Origin: Chloroflexota bacterium
GTDB lineage: Bacteria > Chloroflexota > Dehalococcoidia > SHYB01
Length of the DNA: 64,000 nt
NCBI GenBank assembly: GCA_016875535.1
Contig: VGPF01000004.1
Location: 1,588 to 65,587, forward strand
Direction of reading: 5' to 3'
The notes below the pieces were generated by a model. That model saw only the letters and a list, made by a program, of their open reading frames with translations, was not told the origin of the DNA and did no database searches. Both the position numbers and the translations under genes were made by a program. Positions 1-47,859 of the stretch are shown in pieces. How positions within the stretch are numbered: the first letter of the stretch is position 1; every line of letters starts with the position of its first letter.

Positions 1-192
1 GCACAGGTGGTGATGGATCGCGATACCAACCGCTCGAAGGGCTTCGGCTTCGTTGAGATGCCCGAGTCCTCCGAGGCGGCTGCCGCCATCAAGGCCATGA
101 ACGGCAAAGATATGGGCGGCCGTCCCCTCACCGTCAACGAGGCCCGCCCCCGCGAAGAGCGCGGCGGCGGTTCCTTCCGCAAGCGCTACTAA
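1..192 (+). CDS. RNA-binding protein with RRM domain (5'-truncated at window edge)
   Basis: RNP-1 motif KGFGFVEM plus C-terminal RGG-like tail. Reading frame is open from base 1. A strong terminator follows. Confidence 0.75.
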   Translation, partial: AQVVMDRDTNRSKGFGFVEMPESSEAAAAIKAMNGKDMGGRPLTVNEARPREERGGGSFRKRY

Positions 193-207
193 ACCGGCGC
201 CGCACGA

Positions 208-250
208 ATCAAAAAACCGCCCCGGGTGCCGGCCTGGGGCGGTTTTTTTT
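208..250 (+). terminator. Rho-independent terminator (CCGCCCCGG...CCGGGGCGG followed by T9)
   Basis: Perfect GC-rich stem followed by ttttttttt immediately after the RRM gene stop. Confidence 0.8.
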
Positions 251-624
251 TGCTCTTCCCGATGGCGTCGGTCCCGGCCTACGTCTTCCTCTTCCCCATC
301 AGCCGCTTCATCAGGTCCTTCGGCGCCAAGGGCAAAGAGACCGGCCGGCTCGATCAGCCGCGCGGCGTGGCCGTGGACGCCAACGGCTACCTCTACGTGG
401 CCGATACGGGGAACCACCGCGTCCAAGTCTTCAATGATGAGGGCGAGGTGGTGATGGTCCTGGGCGGCCTGGGCAGCGGGCGCGGCAAGCTGCGCCGGCC
501 AAGCGGCGTGGCCGTGGACGCCCAGGGCAACATCTACGTGGCGGACGCCCTCAACGACCGCATCCAAAAGTTCGTGCCCATGCGGCCGATGGAGTCCGCC
601 GCGGCGGAAGCCAAGGCAATCTAG
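226..624 (+). CDS. NHL-repeat protein fragment (2 NHL repeats; start uncertain, possibly M at 262)
   Basis: Two repeats of G..G.G.F..P.GVAVD..G.lYVAD..N.RvQ.F. High GC3 codon bias. Only ~120 aa, and the annotated start overlaps the upstream terminator, so it is likely truncated or a remnant. Confidence 0.35.
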   Translation: MPAWGGFFLLFPMASVPAYVFLFPISRFIRSFGAKGKETGRLDQPRGVAVDANGYLYVADTGNHRVQVFNDEGEVVMVLGGLGSGRGKLRRPSGVAVDAQGNIYVADALNDRIQKFVPMRPMESAAAEAKAI

Positions 625-665
625 GCGGGCGGGGGCGGGTATTGAAAGCCGAAGCTTTCTAGCCT

Positions 666-697
666 ATCGGCGACCGACTCTTCAGTGCTAGAGTCGG
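666..697. repeat. Perfect 12-bp inverted repeat GCGACCGACTCT-(8 nt)-AGAGTCGGTCGC
   Basis: Read directly. Lies in a lower-GC spacer between the NHL fragment and fic. No U-tract follows, so it is not a canonical terminator. Confidence 0.6.
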
Positions 698-766
698 TCG
701 CATTAGCATCGGCAAAGCTGCTTACATTCTTCCTGGATGCCTGGAGGTTGATTTGTCGCAGTAGGT

Positions 767-779
767 ATGATAGTATCAT
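767..779. promoter_or_regulatory. Palindrome ATGATAgTATCAT overlapping the putative -10 region upstream of fic (possible operator)
   Basis: Perfect 6-1-6 inverted repeat in an AT-rich stretch 17 nt upstream of the fic ATG at 796. Confidence 0.3.
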
Positions 780-795
780 TTTTATCTAAAAAGAT

Positions 796-1869
796 ATGAA
801 TGATAAAATCTTCGCGCCACAATTTCACACGACGGCTCAACTCAAATCCAGCCTAGAAGACATCGAACGAAACCAGTGGCTCATTGAGCGAGTGCTCATC
901 ATGCCCAAGCATGAGGCTTGGGTGCGACGCGATGTGGCTGTGCGGCGCGCCACCGGCACAACGCGCATCGAAGGCGCTGCCCTAGACCAGCGCCAGGTAG
1001 CAGAGCTCGCACGCCGCACCCAGCCCGCAAAACTGAGCGAAGATGAAGCCGCGAACGTCAACGCCCTCGAGACCTATGAGTGGATTGACTATCTCAGCGG
1101 CCAGCAGGACATCCCGATGGATGAGTTTGTCATCCGGGAGATCAATCGGCACTTCCTGCGCGGCGCTTCAGAGATGCTGACGCCCGGCGTCTACCGCAAG
1201 GGACAGAATCACATCGGCAGCTTCCTGCCACCGGACCAGGGCGATGTGCCCGACCTGATGCGCGCATTCGGCTTGTGGCTCCGCCAAGAACCGGGCGATC
1301 TCAACCCTGTCTCGCGCGCCGCCATCGCCCACCTGCACTTCGTCGCCATCCACCCGTTCTGGGACGGCAACGGCCGGACTGCTCGCGGGCTCGCCACGTT
1401 GATCCTTCAGCGGTCGCGCTTCAGCTTCCACAAGCTCCTCTCTCTGGAGTACCGCTTCTACGAGCGCAGAGAGGCCTACCAGTCCGTCATCGCCGGAGCG
1501 GTCGGAACACGCTTCTCGCTCACTTATGATGCGACTCCCTTCGTTGAGTTCTTCGCGGCAGAGCTCGCGGGCCATGTCCAGGACCTTGTGAACTCCCTTA
1601 CCGATTGGCACCGCCGGATCGCGGAGCTGCATGGGCGCTTGGAGCGAGAGCATGCCGGACTCAACCCTCGTCAGATAGATGGGCTCATCTACGCCCTGCA
1701 AACGGGAGAACTGCGGCCGGCCGACTATAAGGAAATCACCAAGGCATCCGATGTGACATGCTCGCGGGATCTTGCGGGCCTGGTGAAGGCCGGCCTCCTC
1801 GCCGCCGAAGGCCGCACGCGAGGGCGGGTCTATAAAGTGGTGCGGAGTCAAGGGAAACAAAGGACGTAG
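796..1869 (+). CDS. Fic/DOC family protein (AMPylation/filamentation domain)
   Basis: Canonical Fic motif HPFWDGNGRTARG (HPFx[D/E]GNGR). Length 357 aa. Confidence 0.9.
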   Translation: MNDKIFAPQFHTTAQLKSSLEDIERNQWLIERVLIMPKHEAWVRRDVAVRRATGTTRIEGAALDQRQVAELARRTQPAKLSEDEAANVNALETYEWIDYLSGQQDIPMDEFVIREINRHFLRGASEMLTPGVYRKGQNHIGSFLPPDQGDVPDLMRAFGLWLRQEPGDLNPVSRAAIAHLHFVAIHPFWDGNGRTARGLATLILQRSRFSFHKLLSLEYRFYERREAYQSVIAGAVGTRFSLTYDATPFVEFFAAELAGHVQDLVNSLTDWHRRIAELHGRLEREHAGLNPRQIDGLIYALQTGELRPADYKEITKASDVTCSRDLAGLVKAGLLAAEGRTRGRVYKVVRSQGKQRT

Positions 1870-1887
1870 GCAACCACGCTTTCCCTC

Positions 1888-2643
1888 TCACGCCTCTTCG
1901 CGCTCCTCCTTCGCCGTGAAGCGCAGGCCCACCACGCGCCCGATCTCTGCGTAAGCGAACTTCCGCGCCAGCATCGTGTAGCGCCGCGATATCGCCTCCG
2001 CGTGGAAGGCGCTGCGGCACGCCACCACCAGCGTCGCGATCTGGTCGCCGCTGCGCTCGTCGGCGATGCTCACGGCTCTCGCTTCGCTGAAGTACATCTC
2101 AAAGCTCTGGATCGGGACCTCCTCCTTCAGCCGCTCCCGGATCTTCTCCCACAGCGCTGCACAAGTCACTCGCTCGCCTTTGAGGTTCACGATAGTAGGT
2201 TCCTTGGAAGGTTCCCTGGAAGATTCAATACTATGGGGGTGACGCTCTGCCGCCCCTGCATGACTCTCCGACGCCCCAGCCTGCTCCTCCGCCGCGCCCC
2301 CTCCCGTCGCAGCGACGCTCTCTCCCGTCGCGCCGTCGCCAGGAGGCGGCGCAGCGACGCCCTCCCGCGGCGGCGCATGGATGGGCAGGATGTAGAAGTT
2401 GGAGCTGTGCGACCCATCGGCCCGGCGGCGGCCGTCGCATTGGATGATGCCTTCGGCGATGAGCTGCTTGAGGGAGCGCTGCACCGTGCGGCGGTTCATC
2501 TCCAGCCGCCCGGCCAGTTCAAGGATGCCGGGCCAGCAGACGCCGCGCGCATCGGCGTGGTCGGCCAGGGCCAGCAGGACGGCCTTCGCTGTCGCGCTGC
2601 CCGCCCGCTGCTTCCATGCCCACTGCATCGCCGCGCCGCTCAT
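1888..2643 (-). CDS. Phage/plasmid replication-initiator-like protein: N-terminal winged HTH plus C-terminal DnaA-N-like domain
   Basis: N-terminus AKAVLLALADHADARGVCWPGILELAGRLEMNRRTVQRSLKQL is a typical replisome-organizer HTH. C-terminus ALWEKIRERLKEEVPIQSFEMYFSEARAVSIADER resembles the DnaA N-terminal helicase-interaction domain. Confidence 0.55.
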   Translation of the reverse strand: MSGAAMQWAWKQRAGSATAKAVLLALADHADARGVCWPGILELAGRLEMNRRTVQRSLKQLIAEGIIQCDGRRRADGSHSSNFYILPIHAPPREGVAAPPPGDGATGESVAATGGGAAEEQAGASESHAGAAERHPHSIESSREPSKEPTIVNLKGERVTCAALWEKIRERLKEEVPIQSFEMYFSEARAVSIADERSGDQIATLVVACRSAFHAEAISRRYTMLARKFAYAEIGRVVGLRFTAKEEREEA

Positions 2644-2847
2644 CCTATTTCCCTTCCTCCTAGCACAACTGTCGTAACTGAACGATCGAACAACCTAACC
2701 TCCCGATGCGGAATCTAAGAGAAAGTCACTTGGTTAGCTTGGGCAATTGCGTTCGAAGTAGTCAGCAAAACGTCCCTCTCGAGCAGCGCCATCCCGATGG
2801 CGTGAGCTCGTCTTCGAGCTACGTGAGGGATTGAGGGAGAGGTCTCC

Positions 2848-3060
2848 CTACCCCAGCCCGTTCACCGCTTTGATCACCGCCCCGATCTCCACGCTCTCCA
2901 CCGTCTGCTCATAGAGCGTCTTGCTGTCCGCCACCGCCTCGTCAACCTCCTGCAGACGGAAGGTCGCCTCGTCCTGCCCGTTCACCGGGGAGACGCGCAT
3001 CCACGTATTCAGTTTCCGCTGGCCCATGTGGTTCTCTTTGATGATCACCGTGTAGGACAT
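2848..3060 (-). CDS. Hypothetical small protein (70 aa)
   Basis: Strong RBS AGGAAAGGAG upstream of the ATG at 3060. Part of a co-directional small-gene array. Confidence 0.5.
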   Translation of the reverse strand: MSYTVIIKENHMGQRKLNTWMRVSPVNGQDEATFRLQEVDEAVADSKTLYEQTVESVEIGAVIKAVNGLG

Positions 3061-3103
3061 CTCGCTCCTTTCCTGCGGGCGACCATGCAAGATCGCCCTT
3101 CCA

Positions 3104-3355
3104 TCAGGTCCGCTCGCTCCTGCCCGCTGCCTCCATCTGCGCGACCTGCGGCTCCATCTTCCGCTCCGCCTCCTCCAGCGCCCCCCGCGCGCTGAGCAGC
3201 TCTTCGAACAGCTCCCGGCGTTCCTTGCGGAAGGCCTCCAGCGCCGCTTCGAAGGCCGCGTTATAGGCCGCCTCCGCCCGGGCCAGCCGCGCCTTCGCCC
3301 GGCAATAGGCCCGCAGCATCGTCTCCGCCTCGCTCAATCCTTCGCGCCACTGCAT
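3104..3355 (-). CDS. Hypothetical coiled-coil protein (83 aa)
   Basis: Ala/Glu-rich heptad-like sequence. In the operon array with its neighbours. Confidence 0.45.
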   Translation of the reverse strand: MQWREGLSEAETMLRAYCRAKARLARAEAAYNAAFEAALEAFRKERRELFEELLSARGALEEAERKMEPQVAQMEAAGRSERT

Positions 3356-3373
3356 CAGGGATCTCGCCTTTCG

Positions 3374-3694
3374 CTAATTCCGCGGCATCGTTCCCGGGCG
3401 GTAGGCTATTGCATCACGCACCGCCCAGGCGGAGTGCTCAACGTCCTCAACTTCGCTCCACGCCCGATCCGCCCTGGCGATGCCCTCAGGCCCAAGCTCC
3501 TCCGCGATGGCGGCCTTCACCCGCCCTGCGATGGCCAGCCAGTGCTCGAACATGGAGACCACCACCGGGTCCAAGCAGGGCAGAACGGCCAGGAGCGCAT
3601 ACCGGCGGGCGTCGATCTCCCACTGCCGCACCGCGTTGTAGTTCACCACCAGCACGAGTTCGGCGCTCATGCCGCAGCGTGGCTCGCCGAACAT
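3374..3694 (-). CDS. Hypothetical protein (106 aa)
   Basis: Excellent RBS AAGGAGGTG placed 8 nt before the ATG. Stop/start overlap (ATGA-type) with the upstream gene. Confidence 0.55.
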   Translation of the reverse strand: MFGEPRCGMSAELVLVVNYNAVRQWEIDARRYALLAVLPCLDPVVVSMFEHWLAIAGRVKAAIAEELGPEGIARADRAWSEVEDVEHSAWAVRDAIAYRPGTMPRN

Positions 3695-3696
3695 CG

Positions 3697-3966
3697 CTAC
3701 GCCACCTCCTTGCCCAGGATCTCCCGCTTGAAGCGGCGATCGCTCACCGCCTTGCGGCTCACCAGGTGCCGCTGGAGCGCGCGCATCGCCGCCTCATCCC
3801 AGGCCAGGGGCCCGCGGCGGCGCAGGCTGGCGCCCGTGGCCCGGTCCACCGGGCCGGAGCAGGAGGCGCACGTCACCTCCACGCCCGAAGGGTGCCGGGC
3901 GATGAAGATGGCGTTCCCGCAGCAGGAGCTGCGCACCGAGCAATCGAAGTGGGCGTAGGGCTCCAT
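3697..3966 (-). CDS. Cys-rich small protein (zinc-ribbon-like), first gene of the array divergent from the repressor
   Basis: C-x6-CC ... C-x2-C-x2-C pattern. RBS GAGAGGAG. Sits in the position a Cro/antirepressor would occupy. Confidence 0.5.
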   Translation of the reverse strand: MEPYAHFDCSVRSSCCGNAIFIARHPSGVEVTCASCSGPVDRATGASLRRRGPLAWDEAAMRALQRHLVSRKAVSDRRFKREILGKEVA

Positions 3967-4117
3967 CGCGCTCCTCTCGGTTCAAATACATGTCTAGTCA
4001 TCTATGGCTTATCGTAACTCCTGATGCCTAGTTGCCGTCAATGGGCGGATGGCGTACACTCGTAGCCACTTTGTATCACCATAGCTAGCCTCTGCTGGCT
4101 ATCACAGGAGCATAACG
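3967..4117. promoter_or_regulatory. Divergent promoter/operator region between the CI-like repressor and the small-gene array
   Basis: 150-bp spacer with short inverted repeats (ATAGCtagcc...ggGCTAT). Lambda-like immunity-region architecture. No operator consensus identified. Confidence 0.35.
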
Positions 4118-4747
4118 ATGGGAACACGGAAGAAGCTGCCGCAACGGGGTAAAGGGACCACCTTGGGCCAGCGCCTGCGCGAGGCGCGCCTGGCCCGCAA
4201 GCTCACCCAGCAGGAGGCGGGCGGTAAGACCAACCTCGCCAACATGTCCATCTCCCGCTACGAGCGCGACGCCGTGGAGCCCGGCCTCGACGCCCTCAAC
4301 CGCCTGGCCACCATCTACAAGGTCTCCGTGGACAGCCTCATCAAGGGCACCAACTTCCGCACCCCCCAGTTCGCCGGCGAGATCCCCATCCGCGGCTGGG
4401 TCGCCGCAGGCACCCCGCGCGAGGCCTACGAGCAGGACCTCGGCTCCATCACCGTCCCCGATTTCTTCCGCCTCGATTCGCCCAAATGCTTCGCCCTCAC
4501 CGTCTCCGGCGACTCCCTGGAAGGCGACGGCATCCGCAACGGCGACTTCCTCGTCGTGGACCCGGACGCCTCCGTCAAGCAGGGCGCCATCTTCATCGTC
4601 CGCGTCGGCGAAGAATTCGTCGCGCGTCACCTGCACATCGAAGAGGGCCACGTCCGCCTGCGGGCCGCCAACAAGAAGTACGAGGACATGAAGGCCTCCA
4701 GCGTCCAGTTCGTCGGGCGCGTCATCGGCCACATCAGGAAACTGTAG
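4118..4747 (+). CDS. CI/LexA-like repressor: XRE-family HTH plus S24 peptidase (self-cleaving)
   Basis: HTH 'TQQEAGGKTNLANMSISRYERD'. Ala-Gly cleavage site (VAAGTP). Ser nucleophile in SGDSL and Lys in ANKKY. Confidence 0.85.
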   Translation: MGTRKKLPQRGKGTTLGQRLREARLARKLTQQEAGGKTNLANMSISRYERDAVEPGLDALNRLATIYKVSVDSLIKGTNFRTPQFAGEIPIRGWVAAGTPREAYEQDLGSITVPDFFRLDSPKCFALTVSGDSLEGDGIRNGDFLVVDPDASVKQGAIFIVRVGEEFVARHLHIEEGHVRLRAANKKYEDMKASSVQFVGRVIGHIRKL

Positions 4748-4845
4748 GCGGCTTGAGCCAAGTCCATGGACATTTCGATGGACAATGTCCACTTGCTATG
4801 ATGCGCGCCAACCTCAGCCTCATGGACCCGTCCGCCGAGTAGCCC

Positions 4846-5268
4846 ATGCTCCGCATCCACACCGCCATCGAGATCGCCGCTCCACCGGAGCGCATCTGGC
4901 ACGAGATCACGTCCCTGGACCAATGGGCCCAGTGGAACCCCATCATGACCCGCGCCTCCGGCGTCGTGGCCGTCGGTCGGCGCGTGAAGGTCTACATCGC
5001 GCCCGTCACTTACAAGGTGCGCGTCACCGAAGTCGTCCCAAACAGAGTCTTCCGCTGGGTGGGCAAGCGCCTCATCCAGGGCTTCATGGACGGCGGGCAC
5101 GCCTTCCTCATCACGCCCCTGGAGGGCGGCCGCGTGCGCCTGGAGCACACGGAGCAGTTCACCGGCATGCTGGTGCCACTCTTGAACCTCGTGGGCCTGG
5201 GGCGCATCACCCGCAACGGCTTCGAGAAGATGAACGCCGCCCTCAAGCGGCGCTGCGAAGGCCCGTAG
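4846..5268 (+). CDS. SRPBCC (polyketide cyclase/dehydrase-like) family protein
   Basis: Sequence pattern typical of the SRPBCC ligand-binding fold, ~140 aa. Confidence 0.6.
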   Translation: MLRIHTAIEIAAPPERIWHEITSLDQWAQWNPIMTRASGVVAVGRRVKVYIAPVTYKVRVTEVVPNRVFRWVGKRLIQGFMDGGHAFLITPLEGGRVRLEHTEQFTGMLVPLLNLVGLGRITRNGFEKMNAALKRRCEGP

Positions 5269-5271
5269 CCG

Positions 5272-5532
5272 CTACCGCCCGCCGTCCTTGAACTTCACCT
5301 TCATCCACAGGATGGCACCCGCAAGCGCCAGTGTCGCCGCGTTCGCCAGGATGATCGGCAGCGAGGCCTTCACCACGCCGTAGATAAGCCACAGCGCGAC
5401 GCCCATGACAAAGATGGCGTACATCCACAGCGAGACGTCCTTCGCCGACCGCTTGCGCCAGATCTCCGCCACCTGGGGCACAAAGGCCGCCGTCGTCAGC
5501 ACGCCCGCCAGAAAGCCGATCGCAGACTCCAT
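5272..5532 (-). CDS. SemiSWEET-type (PQ-loop) small membrane transporter
   Basis: ~86 aa, three predicted TM helices, PQ motif in TM1 (FVPQVAEIW). Confidence 0.6.
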   Translation of the reverse strand: MESAIGFLAGVLTTAAFVPQVAEIWRKRSAKDVSLWMYAIFVMGVALWLIYGVVKASLPIILANAATLALAGAILWMKVKFKDGGR

Positions 5533-5614
5533 AGCGCCGCCTTTCGAACGCACTCGCTACAGATTGTAATGGAAGGCGAAGAACTCCATTTGCACCCTGT
5601 GCTACCATCGTCCG

Positions 5615-7075
5615 ATGTGGAAGCTGCTGCTCGCAGTCTCCTTCGTCGCGGCCCTCCTCCTATCGGGCGCCCTCACCCATGCCCAGGGCAAACAGCCATC
5701 CCTGAGCATCACTGCACCTCGGCCAGGCAGCGTGCAGGCCAAGGCCGATGTTGAAATCAAGTTCAAGGCCGCGAACTTCAAGCTCGATGGCAAGTCCATC
5801 GGGGCCGGCAACAAGGCCGGCACCGGGCACATCGTCGTCTCCGTCAACGGCGTCGAGTTGACCCGCACCGCAAAGACCAGCATCAAAATCACGAGGCTTG
5901 ATGCAGGGGAGCACACCGTCACTGCCGCCCTCAGCAACAACGACCTCTCGCCGCTCGCGTCCCCCGTTGAAGCGAGTGTCACCTTCTCCTACCAACCGCC
6001 TGCCTCCGCAAAAGCAAGCTCCGGCTCGCTTGTGGTCCGGCCCACGCCGACCCTCACACCGACGCCAACCGCCACGCCGACGCCGACAGCGACTCCAACC
6101 CCAACACCGACCGTCACACCGACGCCGACACCGACGCCCACACCCACTCCAACACCGCCTCCCACTCCAACGCCCACGCCGACGCCAACACGAACGCCCA
6201 CGCCGACACCATCACCAACCCCCTCGATCTCTCAGGTCGCGTCGCGCTCACGGCCTGCCGTCGTGCGAATCAACGCGAGTGGCGCCAGCGGCAGCGGCTT
6301 CATCTTTGAGATTGACCGCGCTTCGGGTTCCGCCCTGGTTATGACCAATCAGCATGTCATCAGAGGAGCCCTCTCCTTGCGCGTCACGGTGAACGACAGC
6401 GACCAATACACGGCGACGCTCATCGGCGAGGACGCCTTCCGCGACCTTGCCGTCCTTCGCATTTGCTGTTCACCATCCTTCCAAGCCGCCGCCATCGTCC
6501 CCGATATCGGGATAGACCCAGGCGCTCCCGTCTTCACGCTTGGCTACCCGGTGAGCTTGCCGGGTCAGTCCACCCTCACCAACGGTATCCTGACGGCGAC
6601 GCGCTTCGATACTGCCTCGGACAGCTGGCTCATCCAGACCGATGCCGAAGTCAACCCAGGCAACAGCGGTGGGCCGCTCTTCCTCCTCGCCACCGGCGAA
6701 GTCATCGGCGTGGTCACGTCGCGCACCACCACCTCTGCCGATGGTCGTCCGGTCTTCGGCATCGGCTTCGCCGTCATGGGACGCACCGTTCTCGAGCGAT
6801 TACCTTCTCTCCGTTCAGGCGCCACGGCGCCCACGCCTGTGCCCACGCCGACCCCTACGCCGAACCCCCTGCCAAGCTCGGGCTTCGGCCCGGTCAGCGG
6901 CTCCCTGGCCCATTCCACAACAGCCGTCGCCAACGCCCTCGCCGGCATCGTGACAAGAGACGGCCTCGTTTCAGCGACCTTCACCGTTCCCTATACCGGC
7001 AGCACTGCGAACGGTTGGGACTTCGGCTTCTTCTTGCGATACACTGCCGCCACGGCAAATACCGCTAGCTCCTAG
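5615..7075 (+). CDS. Secreted trypsin-like S1 serine protease with Pro/Thr-rich linker
   Basis: Signal peptide. (PT)n linker. Catalytic motifs TNQHV, DLAVLRI and GNSGGPLF. Confidence 0.85.
6046..6232 (+). repeat. Tandem PT-encoding low-complexity repeat (ACNCCNACNCCG)n
   Basis: Read directly. Similar PT tracts occur at ~10390-10640 (minus-strand lipoprotein) and ~23650-23770. Confidence 0.8.
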
Positions 7076-32812: not shown

Positions 32813-33196
32813 CTATCCCTTCGGGCGCATCCATGTGAGAATCACGTCGCGGTATCGCTCTGCTCTCTCGAACTCCGGTTCGGGCGGCGCGCCCTTGTGA
32901 AATCCTCCCAAGAAGGCGATATCTCCATTGGGCAGGAGGGAATAGAGGAGCCTGTCCCCCTGATGCGACTTAAGCTCGAAGAGGTTCTTCCTCCCTTTGA
33001 TTTGGCGCGAGATCGCTGTGTTTGCGACTGGGCCGTGATTCGCAAGGCTCTCCGATCGTCGAACAAGGGCCTCGGCAGAGTTCCTGTTCGTCCGACGCAG
33101 CCGCTCCAGAAAGTCCATCGCAGGGGACCTTCCGGAACTATCGTACAGCGCCACTACTTTATGCAGCCTGCCGTGATAGACAACATCAAGTCGCAT
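32813..33196 (-). CDS. RelE/ParE-superfamily (HigB/Gp49-like) toxin
   Basis: ~125 aa, upstream partner of the HTH antitoxin. The family assignment is by weak similarity and gene order. Confidence 0.5.
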   Translation of the reverse strand: MRLDVVYHGRLHKVVALYDSSGRSPAMDFLERLRRTNRNSAEALVRRSESLANHGPVANTAISRQIKGRKNLFELKSHQGDRLLYSLLPNGDIAFLGGFHKGAPPEPEFERAERYRDVILTWMRPKG

Positions 33197-46694: not shown

Positions 46695-47480
46695 CTATGC
46701 CGTCACGGCGGCGAGATAGAGACCCCGGGCCGCCTCCAGGGCTAATGCCAAGCTCATCAGATACCCATCGTCGGAGGCCGTGTCCGGCGGGAACTCCAGG
46801 CCCCCGTCCGGCTTCGCCTTGGCCTGCGCCCGCACGATCTGCGCCCAGAAGTCCATCGCCTCCCGGGAGCCGTCCTGGGCGTAGACCTTCACCAGCTCGG
46901 CCTCCACCTCATGGAGGAGGCGCGCGCACAGCTCCGTGCGCTGTCGCCCGTAGAGGCCAGTCACCTCCACGCGCCCGTCGCCCATCGCCCCGTCGCGCTC
47001 GATGTGATCCGCCGCCGACGCCAGCGACGGCATCCCCGCGACGACCCGGCTCAAGCGCCACGGCGCGAGCTGTTCCCTGACCAGCGCGGAGAGGCGCACA
47101 TCTTCCAGCTTGCCGCTCCACTGCTCGTGATGCACCACGCGCACCATGGGCCTCGGCATCCCGGCGTCCGTTTCGGCGATGGTCAGCGTCAGCGCTTCGC
47201 GAGGCTCGCCGGAGAAGAGTGAATAGCTGTTGTACTGGGTCTGGGGCGCGGAGACCGCAAGCCCCGCCACATACGATTTGCCCGCCAGCGGCTGTTTCCG
47301 GCGCGGATAGACGCCGCGCATCCCCACCCGCTGCACCAGGGAGAACATCCGCGAGGCATTGGGCTGCTCAACCGCCGCCGCTTGCCTCGCCTGCCACGGG
47401 CGGTCCGCCGCTGCCGCCATCCGCGTCCGCGCCGTTTCAATCGCCTCTTGGAACTGCCTCACCTCGGCCTTTGCTGACAT
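46695..47480 (-). CDS. Hypothetical protein (261 aa), co-operonic with the Cys-rich HTH protein
   Basis: High GC3. No recognisable domain. Confidence 0.45.
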   Translation of the reverse strand: MSAKAEVRQFQEAIETARTRMAAAADRPWQARQAAAVEQPNASRMFSLVQRVGMRGVYPRRKQPLAGKSYVAGLAVSAPQTQYNSYSLFSGEPREALTLTIAETDAGMPRPMVRVVHHEQWSGKLEDVRLSALVREQLAPWRLSRVVAGMPSLASAADHIERDGAMGDGRVEVTGLYGRQRTELCARLLHEVEAELVKVYAQDGSREAMDFWAQIVRAQAKAKPDGGLEFPPDTASDDGYLMSLALALEAARGLYLAAVTA

Positions 47481-47859
47481 CGCTGTGCTCCTTCAAATCA
47501 AGTTGCCCCTTCTGCAATCCGAACGCACGTTCTGATGAATGGCTCGATGGTAGCACAGGCGTTCTACTGCCGTCAAGCCCCCTCCGCCGCCTGAGGCGGC
47601 GGCCCTTGGGCCTCGGGCGTGCAAGATGCGCCGACGCCCTTGGCAGCCGCCCGCAAGCCGTCCTGAGGTATAATCATTCGAGCGGCCCAGGCCGCCTTTC
47701 CTATGGACGAGCGCCAGGCATACGCGAAGGGCCATCCGGCCGCCTGCACCTGCGCGGACTGCAGCAGGCGGCGGCTTGAGCGGCAGCAGCGCAAGGGCCT
47801 CCTCTCGCGCCTGCTGGCCAGGCTGCGCGGCAAGCGCTAGCGCGCCCGTCCGGTCTCAC

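Follow-up and report, generated by a model that had tools for sequence, protein, structure and literature searches.

The DNA analysed here (64,000 nucleotides, termed the window; positions 1,588 to 65,587 of contig VGPF01000004.1, assembly GCA_016875535.1) belongs to a Chloroflexota bacterium of the Dehalococcoidia and carries, close to its start, a cassette of six genes. The cassette consists of a gene for a CI/LexA-type repressor and, diverging from it, an operon of five genes, of which four encode small orphan proteins and the last a lambda-O-like replication initiator. It is inherited vertically and maintained by selection, and is neither a decaying prophage nor a mobile satellite; the Fic gene next to it is a separate, dispensable gene outside the six-gene module. 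The best explanation is that the cassette is a domesticated remnant of a lambdoid immunity-early-replication region, acting as a repressor-gated replicon in situ. That chain as a whole is held with evenly divided confidence, and its descriptive parts with much higher confidence, namely the gene identities, domain folds, synteny, vertical descent, purifying selection, conserved regulatory DNA, repeat and low-GC architecture and accessory nature of the Fic gene.

The mechanism envisaged is conditional in its operator and promoter function, origin function, helicase recruitment, inducing signal and biological benefit. A region of a lambdoid temperate phage would have been fixed in the ancestor of a small Chloroflexi clade and kept functional by selection. 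The CI-type repressor would bind a palindrome and a promoter block in the 151-bp divergent region and so hold the five-gene operon off, until a signal inactivated it by self-cleavage at Ala97-Gly98 or by some other route, the latter being entertained because the usual catalytic Lys is Arg. With the repressor inactivated the operon would be expressed, and the winged helix of the O-like initiator would bind 21-bp repeats inside its own gene. The initiator would then melt the adjoining low-GC stretch, its DnaA-domain-I-like domain recruiting the host replicative helicase. Lacking an integrase and an excisionase, the cassette would replicate without leaving its site and so raise the copy number of the chromosome around it, with its variable defence-type genes (Fic/SoFic).

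Distribution, descent and selection

Homologues of the initiator number eight in 5.8 billion proteins, three of them full-length (one per cluster), comprising an identical copy and proteins of 68% and 65% identity. The core is carried by only four lineages, all uncultured Chloroflexi known from metagenomes, namely that of the window, L007/L008, L010/L011 and L013/L075. Contigs of the window's own genome that bear the locus, recognized by exact sequence match, come from a Lake Tanganyika metagenome. The gene order in all four lineages is repressor, 89-amino-acid (aa) protein, ~106-aa protein, ~80-aa protein, 70-aa protein and initiator, and the host flanks are also the same in all four, with SRPBCC and PQ-loop genes on the repressor side and an NHL-repeat gene on the initiator side. 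The gap between the repressor and SRPBCC genes holds nothing in the window, a HicB-like gene in L010, a second Fic gene and a DUF2283 gene in L008, and a 213-aa orphan in L075. When 185,579 species genomes were scanned, neither the initiator nor the SRPBCC protein returned a relative, and the SRPBCC protein was found among the 5.8 billion proteins in the same clade only. A preliminary description of this DNA, made from its letters, had named a conserved gene order at this locus in ordinary chromosomal context across distant relatives as a sign against a phage module; such an order was found, but only among fairly close relatives.

Synonymous divergence (dS, Nei-Gojobori method) was 0.25-0.8 for five of the six core genes and 0.27-1.3 for the flanking host genes. 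The core values lie within the range of the flanks, so the cassette has been co-inherited with the chromosome. No convincing att-like direct repeats flank it, and this, together with the identical flanks and the lack of a recombinase, argues against a currently mobile element. All six open reading frames (ORFs) are intact in the four lineages at dS of ~0.3-0.8, and the ratio of nonsynonymous to synonymous divergence (dN/dS) in the closest pair is 0.1-0.43 for every core gene. In a neutral simulation, which was limited to substitutions and so precedes any count of indels, the five operon ORFs all stayed open with a probability of ~1e-3 to 1e-4 per lineage. Intact ORFs and low dN/dS together indicate that the cassette is maintained by selection, and simple decay is excluded.

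Genes and regulatory DNA of the cassette

The ORF map and sequence bore out the preliminary description in its main outline: the six core genes and the Fic gene were all present where it had placed them, the XRE plus S24 repressor is divergent from four small genes, and the layout of repressor, early small genes and O-type initiator is lambda-like, with counterparts in viral contigs L037 and L078. The initiator gene (1888-2643, minus strand) encodes 251 aa, for which a helix-turn-helix (HTH) and a DnaA-N-like domain had been proposed. Hidden Markov model searches agreed, returning Pfam HTH_36 and DnaA_N, the latter at 25.9 bits and just over the cut-off of 24.6, and PHROG 'replication initiation / O-like' families with E values down to 5e-27. 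The AlphaFold model has a winged helix at residues 1-90, a disordered linker at 91-146 and a domain of alpha-alpha-beta-beta-alpha-beta order at 150-245, which is DnaA-domain-I-like. The initiator thus has the N-terminal winged-helix origin-binding domain of phage initiator families such as that of lambda O; a C-terminal recruitment domain with its partner gene downstream, also expected of a lambda O, was not found in that arrangement. Its dN/dS is 0.2-0.46 over the whole gene and 0.11-0.48 over both folded domains.

Iteron-like direct repeats with the consensus GGGGCGGCnGAGnGTCAC and a phasing of 21 bp lie in the linker-coding part of the gene (2239-2298, minus strand) and are candidate origin repeats. 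Matches to GGGGCGGCnGAGnGTCAC within the gene number two to five per lineage when up to 4 mismatches are allowed, and repeats on the same strand and in phase occur near codons 115, 122 and 129 across all four lineages, although not all three in each. The same DNA codes for a repeated peptide of 7 residues, and a function at the DNA level is therefore one that we infer. Directly after the repeats comes a low-GC stretch (2175-2238, minus strand), a candidate DNA-unwinding element, with GC of ~0.49 against 0.73, GC at third codon positions (GC3) of 0.44-0.52 against ~0.9, and the motif GAACC every 12-14 nt. It falls within the lowest 0.25% of 30-codon windows in the genes of the window, and the succession of repeats and low-GC stretch is retained in all four lineages. 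An origin function of the two elements is suggested with moderate confidence. Elsewhere in the window, a secreted trypsin-like protease (5615-7075) has a long Pro/Thr linker with GC3 down to ~0.5, and its length is 486, 613 and 352 aa between lineages; the dip in GC3 over that linker means that low-GC3 stretches can arise from linker coding alone in this genome.

Neither 2.9 million viral contigs nor GenBank phages yielded a full-length close relative of the initiator, the GenBank phages giving only HTH matches to it and repressors of ~30% identity or less. Distant phage counterparts were reached by a repressor-based scan of the viral contigs followed by local tblastn. Contig L037 encodes a CI-like repressor, a divergent cro-like gene, an O-like initiator and a DnaB-type helicase, and its initiator aligns with that of the cassette across both domains at 27% identity. 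The P22-like phage contig L078 has a repressor, Cro and an HTH_36 protein ahead of terminase and portal genes.

The repressor gene (4118-4747, plus strand) encodes 209 aa with the N-terminal XRE-type HTH and C-terminal S24 peptidase domain that define a lambda-type CI, and matches Pfam HTH_3/HTH_31 and Peptidase_S24 (E value 4e-26) and PHROG 4 'transcriptional repressor' (E value 2e-35). Alignments were made with HMMER to LexA structures and with MAFFT to LexA, lambda CI and the 117 nearest cluster representatives. The cleavage motif VAA-G at residues 95-98 (Ala97-Gly98) aligned with LexA A84-G85, and the nucleophile Ser133 (GDSL) with LexA S119; both the Ser and the Ala-Gly site are kept across the relatives of the repressor. 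The general-base Lys of this family (LexA K156, CI K192) is absent, its position being occupied by Arg170, followed by His171 (residues 169-172, 'ARHL'). Arg followed by His is present in the three lineages in which this part of the repressor was assembled (window, L008 and L010), and His171 is invariant in the nine closest sequences. Among the 117 representatives this position is Arg in 70 and Lys in 37, with His next to it in 68, and 'ARH' was also read in two viral-contig repressors. By these alignments, a large XRE plus S24 repressor subfamily shares the trait of Ala-[Arg/Lys]-His at the position of the LexA catalytic Lys, and may have a non-canonical catalytic arrangement. The conserved Ser and Ala-Gly site suggest that cleavage still matters for the repressor. 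LexA K156R shows poor cleavage near neutral pH, and Ser/His serves as the catalytic pair in the related eukaryotic signal peptidases. A search of the literature for S24 repressors with Arg or His at this position returned nothing relevant. With the canonical Ser/Lys dyad absent, SOS-type induction cannot be assumed. The Gram-positive-type LexA box GAAC-N4-GTTC does not occur in the cassette region; its only two matches in the window are at 32870-32881 and 47521-47532, the latter ~40 nt upstream of the start (47480) of a minus-strand ORF (46695-47480) and ~330 nt before a tRNA-Gln gene. The repressor gene has dN/dS of 0.09-0.18.

The 151-bp spacer between the repressor gene and the first operon gene was aligned across the four lineages. 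A palindrome, TAGCC-N6-GGCTA, lies at 4086-4101, 16 nt ahead of the start codon of the repressor gene, and both of its arms are invariant in the four lineages, making it a candidate operator for autoregulation. The palindrome is a single site in the 64-kb window, yet one is expected by chance, so that its conservation and not its rarity is the evidence for it. Promoter-like DNA for the early operon lies at 4011-4041 on the minus strand, where an 18-nt block, TTGACGGCAACTAGGCAT (4041-4024), invariant in the four lineages, is followed after a 19-nt spacer by TAnnAT (TACGAT, 4016-4011). A consensus scan missed this putative promoter because of its 19-nt spacer. The alignment revealed no clear set of repeated operators and no obvious tripartite operator.

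The four small minus-strand ORFs that diverge from the repressor gene encode 89, 106, 83 and 70 aa, and none of the proteins has a significant match in Pfam, PHROGs or PADLOC (weak matches only, with E values above 0.03). The first gene (3697-3966), in the position of lambda cro, encodes 89 aa with a Cys-rich, zinc-ribbon-like N-terminal part, as had been proposed, and a variable tail. Cys residues 9, 15, 16, 33 and 36 are conserved in all orthologues; no HTH or Cro match was found in Pfam or PHROGs (best PHROG match weak, E value 0.03). Its dN/dS is 0.12-0.44 over the N-terminal 58 codons and ~1 over the tail. The second gene (3374-3694) encodes a fast-evolving orphan of 106 aa with 33-62% identity between lineages, dN/dS of 0.23-0.64 and dS above 1, and the third (3104-3355) a helical, coiled-coil-like orphan of 83 aa with the conserved core AEAAYNAAFEAAL..FR.E...LF.ELL, whose dN/dS is 0.20 for the closest pair and rises to at most 1.1 among distant ones. 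The fourth gene (2848-3060) starts at the ATG at 3060, as called in all lineages, and its orphan product of 70 aa is the most conserved of the operon (84-96% identity, dN/dS 0.09-0.14). It has 7 homologues in the 5.8 billion proteins, all in the same clade, and its predicted structure is of low confidence and without a fold match.

Two features of this array depart from the preliminary description. Near-consensus Shine-Dalgarno sites had been assigned to all four small genes; they are good for the 89-, 106- and 70-aa genes, as for the initiator and repressor genes, and weaker for the 83-aa gene. The array had also been called tightly packed, but it is not tight throughout: a non-coding, hairpin-bearing spacer of 204 nt (2644-2847, minus strand) separates the 70-aa gene from the initiator gene. 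The palindrome AGGGAGAccTCTCCCT stands directly after the stop codon and is kept in three lineages, and the spacer also contains GAGAGGGAC-GTTTTG. The spacer is present in three lineages and absent in L010, in which the two genes overlap (ATGA); in L013 it has a perfect 14-bp stem. Its folding z-score is -2.1, Rfam gave no match in positions 1-6000 of the window, and it is possibly an attenuator or terminator.

The Fic gene and the flanks

The Fic gene (796-1869, plus strand) encodes an AMPylase of 357 aa with a Pfam Fic domain, the active-site motif HPFWDGNGRTAR at residues 186-197 and the inhibitory-helix motif TTRIEG at residues 55-60. It matches the PADLOC SoFic profile at an E value of 1.3e-41 over profile positions 47-349 of 361, and so combines the HPFx[D/E]GNGRxxR motif with the full-length profile match that characterize SoFic; it is predicted to be an anti-phage gene of this type. 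The second Fic protein, of L008, matches the same profile at 1e-46, likewise over almost its whole length, and both have HPFx[D/E]GNGRxxR and an N-terminal TxxxEG inhibitory motif. An AT-rich leader with a perfect palindrome had been described for this gene, and the leader (767-795, plus strand) in fact holds two, ATGATAgTATCAT (767-779) and ATCTaaaaAGAT (784-795), the ATGATA/TATCAT arms of which recur upstream of the orthologous Fic gene in L008.

The preliminary description had the module carry the Fic gene, which does not hold. The gene runs towards the operon, the two stop codons lying 18 bp apart; it has a promoter region of its own and matches the SoFic family, and its GC3 is 0.74 against 0.83-0.92 for the core. 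It is present beyond the initiator gene in the window and L008 and absent in L010/L011 and L013; the sister lineages L008 and L013, with initiators 90% identical, thus differ in it, which marks it as an accessory neighbour. A terminator-like hairpin with a T-rich tail (1864-1879, minus strand), just past the initiator stop codon, was found by consensus scan and would block operon transcripts antisense to Fic; such matches were not in excess over those in shuffled sequence.

The left flank was read from contigs of the window's genome that reach ~2.6 kb past the window start (~3.4 kb left of Fic). No integrase, excisionase, packaging or structural genes were present in this 3.4 kb or in the 5-27 kb to the right, as had been reported for the module itself. 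The gene content of the 5-27 kb region is ordinary (two-component sensors, TerC, fatty-acid hydroxylase and others), and the two tRNA genes of the window are both distant from the cassette. The upstream flank had been called housekeeping, which is not simply so. It holds a remnant of the NHL-repeat gene (226-624), the C-terminal part of 120-132 aa, the orthologues being of 623-630 aa, and beyond the window start two RRM proteins, a 100-aa ORF, a DUF5131 gene cut to 98 aa and a transposase fragment. The NHL-repeat gene is of full length (623-630 aa) in L008 and L013 and has a different internal deletion in L010/L011, and is thus decaying independently in two lineages.

A DUF5131 gene (phage Gp37/Gp68-type) lies near the cassette in two lineages, that of the window and L010/L011 (L001 5302-5782 and L006 8597-8893, both ~2 kb left of window position 1; L010 4418-5146; L011 4391-5691). 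The intact gene encodes 242-246 aa and in L011 is followed by a 186-aa partner ORF, and in the genome of the window the 98-aa remnant adjoins the transposase (rve_2) fragment. Lone antitoxin-type genes stand just 3' of the repressor gene in L010 (530-754, HicB-like) and L008 (4758-4979, DUF2283), with no partner toxin of the usual type visible for either. The L010 gene has a HicB-like N-domain without HicA and begins 25 nt past the repressor stop codon, and is probably co-transcribed with it; the L008 gene adjoins the second Fic gene. In L074, of the sister lineage L013/L075, an AAA_15/AAA_21 ATPase and DUF4276 pair (2711-4457) lies beside the PQ-loop gene. Of the two it was the ATPase that was compared with PADLOC, and its match to HEC-01, a candidate defence system (E value 4e-52), supports the neighbourhood as a hotspot of defence genes.

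Alternative explanations and known systems

A number of observations weigh against a repressor-gated replicon. The initiator gene is not followed by a helicase or loader gene, as its counterpart in L037 is. Peptide repeats of a disordered linker are encoded where the repeats and the low-GC stretch lie, and another linker in the window has an equally low GC3, so that the 'origin' may have arisen simply from the coding of a linker. Nor are synonymous sites there clearly more conserved than in the rest of the gene. The catalytic Lys (LexA Lys156) is replaced in the repressor, and the -35/-10 spacer of the putative operon promoter is 19 nt. Neither an empty site nor an intact prophage relative turned up to prove a phage origin. 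Flank proteins are 72-90% identical, which makes the four lineages fairly close and the period of retention a modest one. All data are metagenome assemblies, and replication and induction are predictions made from them.

The chief rival, clearly less probable but to be taken seriously, is a domesticated module that does not replicate and serves superinfection immunity, abortive infection or stress regulation. The repressor would silence related phages or sense infection, the small proteins, notably that of 70 aa, would be the effectors, and the 'initiator' would be a DNA-binding regulator or a decoy titrating phage or host replication factors. This accords with the strongest purifying selection being on the repressor and the 70-aa protein and not on the initiator, with the defence or toxin-type slots at both ends of the cassette (SoFic-like Fic twice, HicB-like, DUF2283 and HEC-01 nearby), with the missing helicase or loader partner and with origin-like features that may be linker by-products. 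The initiator, however, keeps an origin-binding-type winged helix and a DnaA-domain-I fold under purifying selection, its in-phase repeats and low-GC architecture are kept in four lineages, and none of the six core proteins matches a known defence family. A still-mobile element, whether a satellite or island like the phage-inducible chromosomal islands (PICIs), an integrated plasmid or a user of host recombinases, inserted repeatedly at one site, is an unlikely explanation. Its compact layout of repressor plus replication gene, the variable cargo at both ends and the very patchy distribution (four lineages among 5.8 billion proteins) would suit such an element, but integrase, recombinase, packaging gene and flanking direct repeats are all lacking, the host flanks are the same everywhere, the dS of the module matches that of the flanks, and neither an initiator relative in 2.9 million viral contigs nor an instance in any other genomic context was found.

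An inert, decaying prophage remnant that by chance is still intact is disfavoured and hard to credit. The locus does lack integrase and structural genes, its neighbourhood is decaying (the truncated NHL-repeat and DUF5131 genes and the transposase fragment), and parts of the 89- and 83-aa genes have dN/dS near 1; against this stand the six intact ORFs at dS of ~0.3-0.8, the low chance of five operon ORFs remaining open under neutrality (~1e-3 to 1e-4 per lineage), the closest-pair dN/dS of 0.1-0.43 in every gene and the conserved regulatory DNA. Least probable of all, and by a first reading of the DNA one of the possibilities, is an SOS cassette whose repressor would cleave itself when stimulated by RecA, so that the small genes and, through them, Fic would be switched on. 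In its favour, relatives of the repressor conserve the Ala-Gly site and Ser nucleophile that the S24 domain still has, and Fic adjoins the operon here. However, Arg170 stands in place of the catalytic Lys, no GAAC-N4-GTTC box occurs in the region, and nothing in the arrangement of the genes would let the operon drive Fic, which is convergent, lies behind the terminator-like hairpin, has its own palindromic leader and is absent in two of the four lineages. Of the three options in the preliminary description (decayed prophage, satellite or PICI-like element, domesticated cassette), the third fits best, the first being contradicted by intact ORFs with dN/dS below 1 and the second by the absence of integrase and att-like repeats, the identical host flanks and the lack of anything similar in viral contigs.

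Prophage remnants are usually regarded as debris in decay, or else as donors of single useful genes. In this case a complete unit of repressor, early operon and initiator, with nothing else, is under purifying selection at one locus in four sampled lineages, and its four orphan proteins are clearly under selection. The Arg-His repressor subfamily is relevant to the way in which repressors of this kind lose their activity. If the replicon reading is right, the cassette would be a minimal, naturally stripped-down, domesticated phage switch and origin in a poorly studied phylum, beside a slot for defence genes; if it is wrong, it would be an ordinary long-lived cryptic prophage fragment beside a SoFic-type gene. 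A further step, speculative and improbable as it stands, is a chromosomal amplification switch in which phage attack or DNA damage leads to firing of the origin in place and hence to more copies of the flanking defence genes (SoFic-type Fic, HicB-like, HEC-01 and others). A domesticated phage origin would then act as a dosage amplifier for an immune island, with the Ser/Arg(-His) S24 repressor as its sensor and the four orphan proteins as new early-function effectors.

In phage lambda the replication origin lies inside gene O, where direct repeats followed by a lower-GC stretch occupy the linker-coding part. The cassette shares with lambda the divergent CI-type HTH plus S24 repressor, the early operon whose last gene encodes an initiator built of a DNA-binding domain at the N terminus, a flexible linker and a putative recruitment domain at the C terminus, and the direct repeats and lower-GC stretch in the part of the initiator gene that encodes the linker. 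It differs in that its first operon gene is zinc-ribbon-like and not an HTH Cro, three more orphan genes intervene, no P/DnaC-like loader or helicase gene is present, the C-terminal domain of the initiator has the fold of DnaA domain I, and Arg takes the place of the catalytic Lys in the repressor. Integrase, excisionase, lysis and structural genes are also missing, and the cassette is a fixed, vertically inherited part of the chromosome. The usual marks of a prophage (integrase, att repeats, lysis and virion genes) were not found, the genes having been sought in the 5-27 kb to the right and in the 3.4 kb left of Fic. PICIs and other satellites are likewise compact repressor plus replication modules without capsid genes, but the cassette lacks their integrase, att sites and packaging-redirection genes and gives no sign of mobility. 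A filamentous-phage or CTX/RS1-like element was also considered and rejected, as there is no rolling-circle initiator, Zot-like ATPase or small membrane coat protein.

SoFic is a single-gene anti-phage defence system (10.1101/2022.05.11.491447; PMC12249575), and the neighbouring Fic protein matches its profile almost end to end with a canonical AMPylation motif; unlike SoFic of AS1, it has no small anti-Sofic gene downstream and abuts the 3' end of the initiator gene. The run-off replication (ROR) origin of Bartonella is a domesticated, conserved, phage-derived chromosomal origin that has been proposed to amplify neighbouring genes in place (PMC3610622, PMC6899734). The cassette would resemble it as a phage-derived origin domesticated in the chromosome. 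In Bartonella, however, amplification has been demonstrated and the amplified DNA is packaged by a gene transfer agent, whereas here amplification is a prediction, no particle genes were seen, and the host phylum and proteins are unrelated. Prophages that fail to excise also amplify flanking chromosome, defence genes included, when their origins fire (lambda, PMC2147009; P22 and lateral transduction, PMC8575938, PMC12829572). Those prophages are complete or recently crippled, whereas here a six-gene core alone has been retained over dS of ~0.5.

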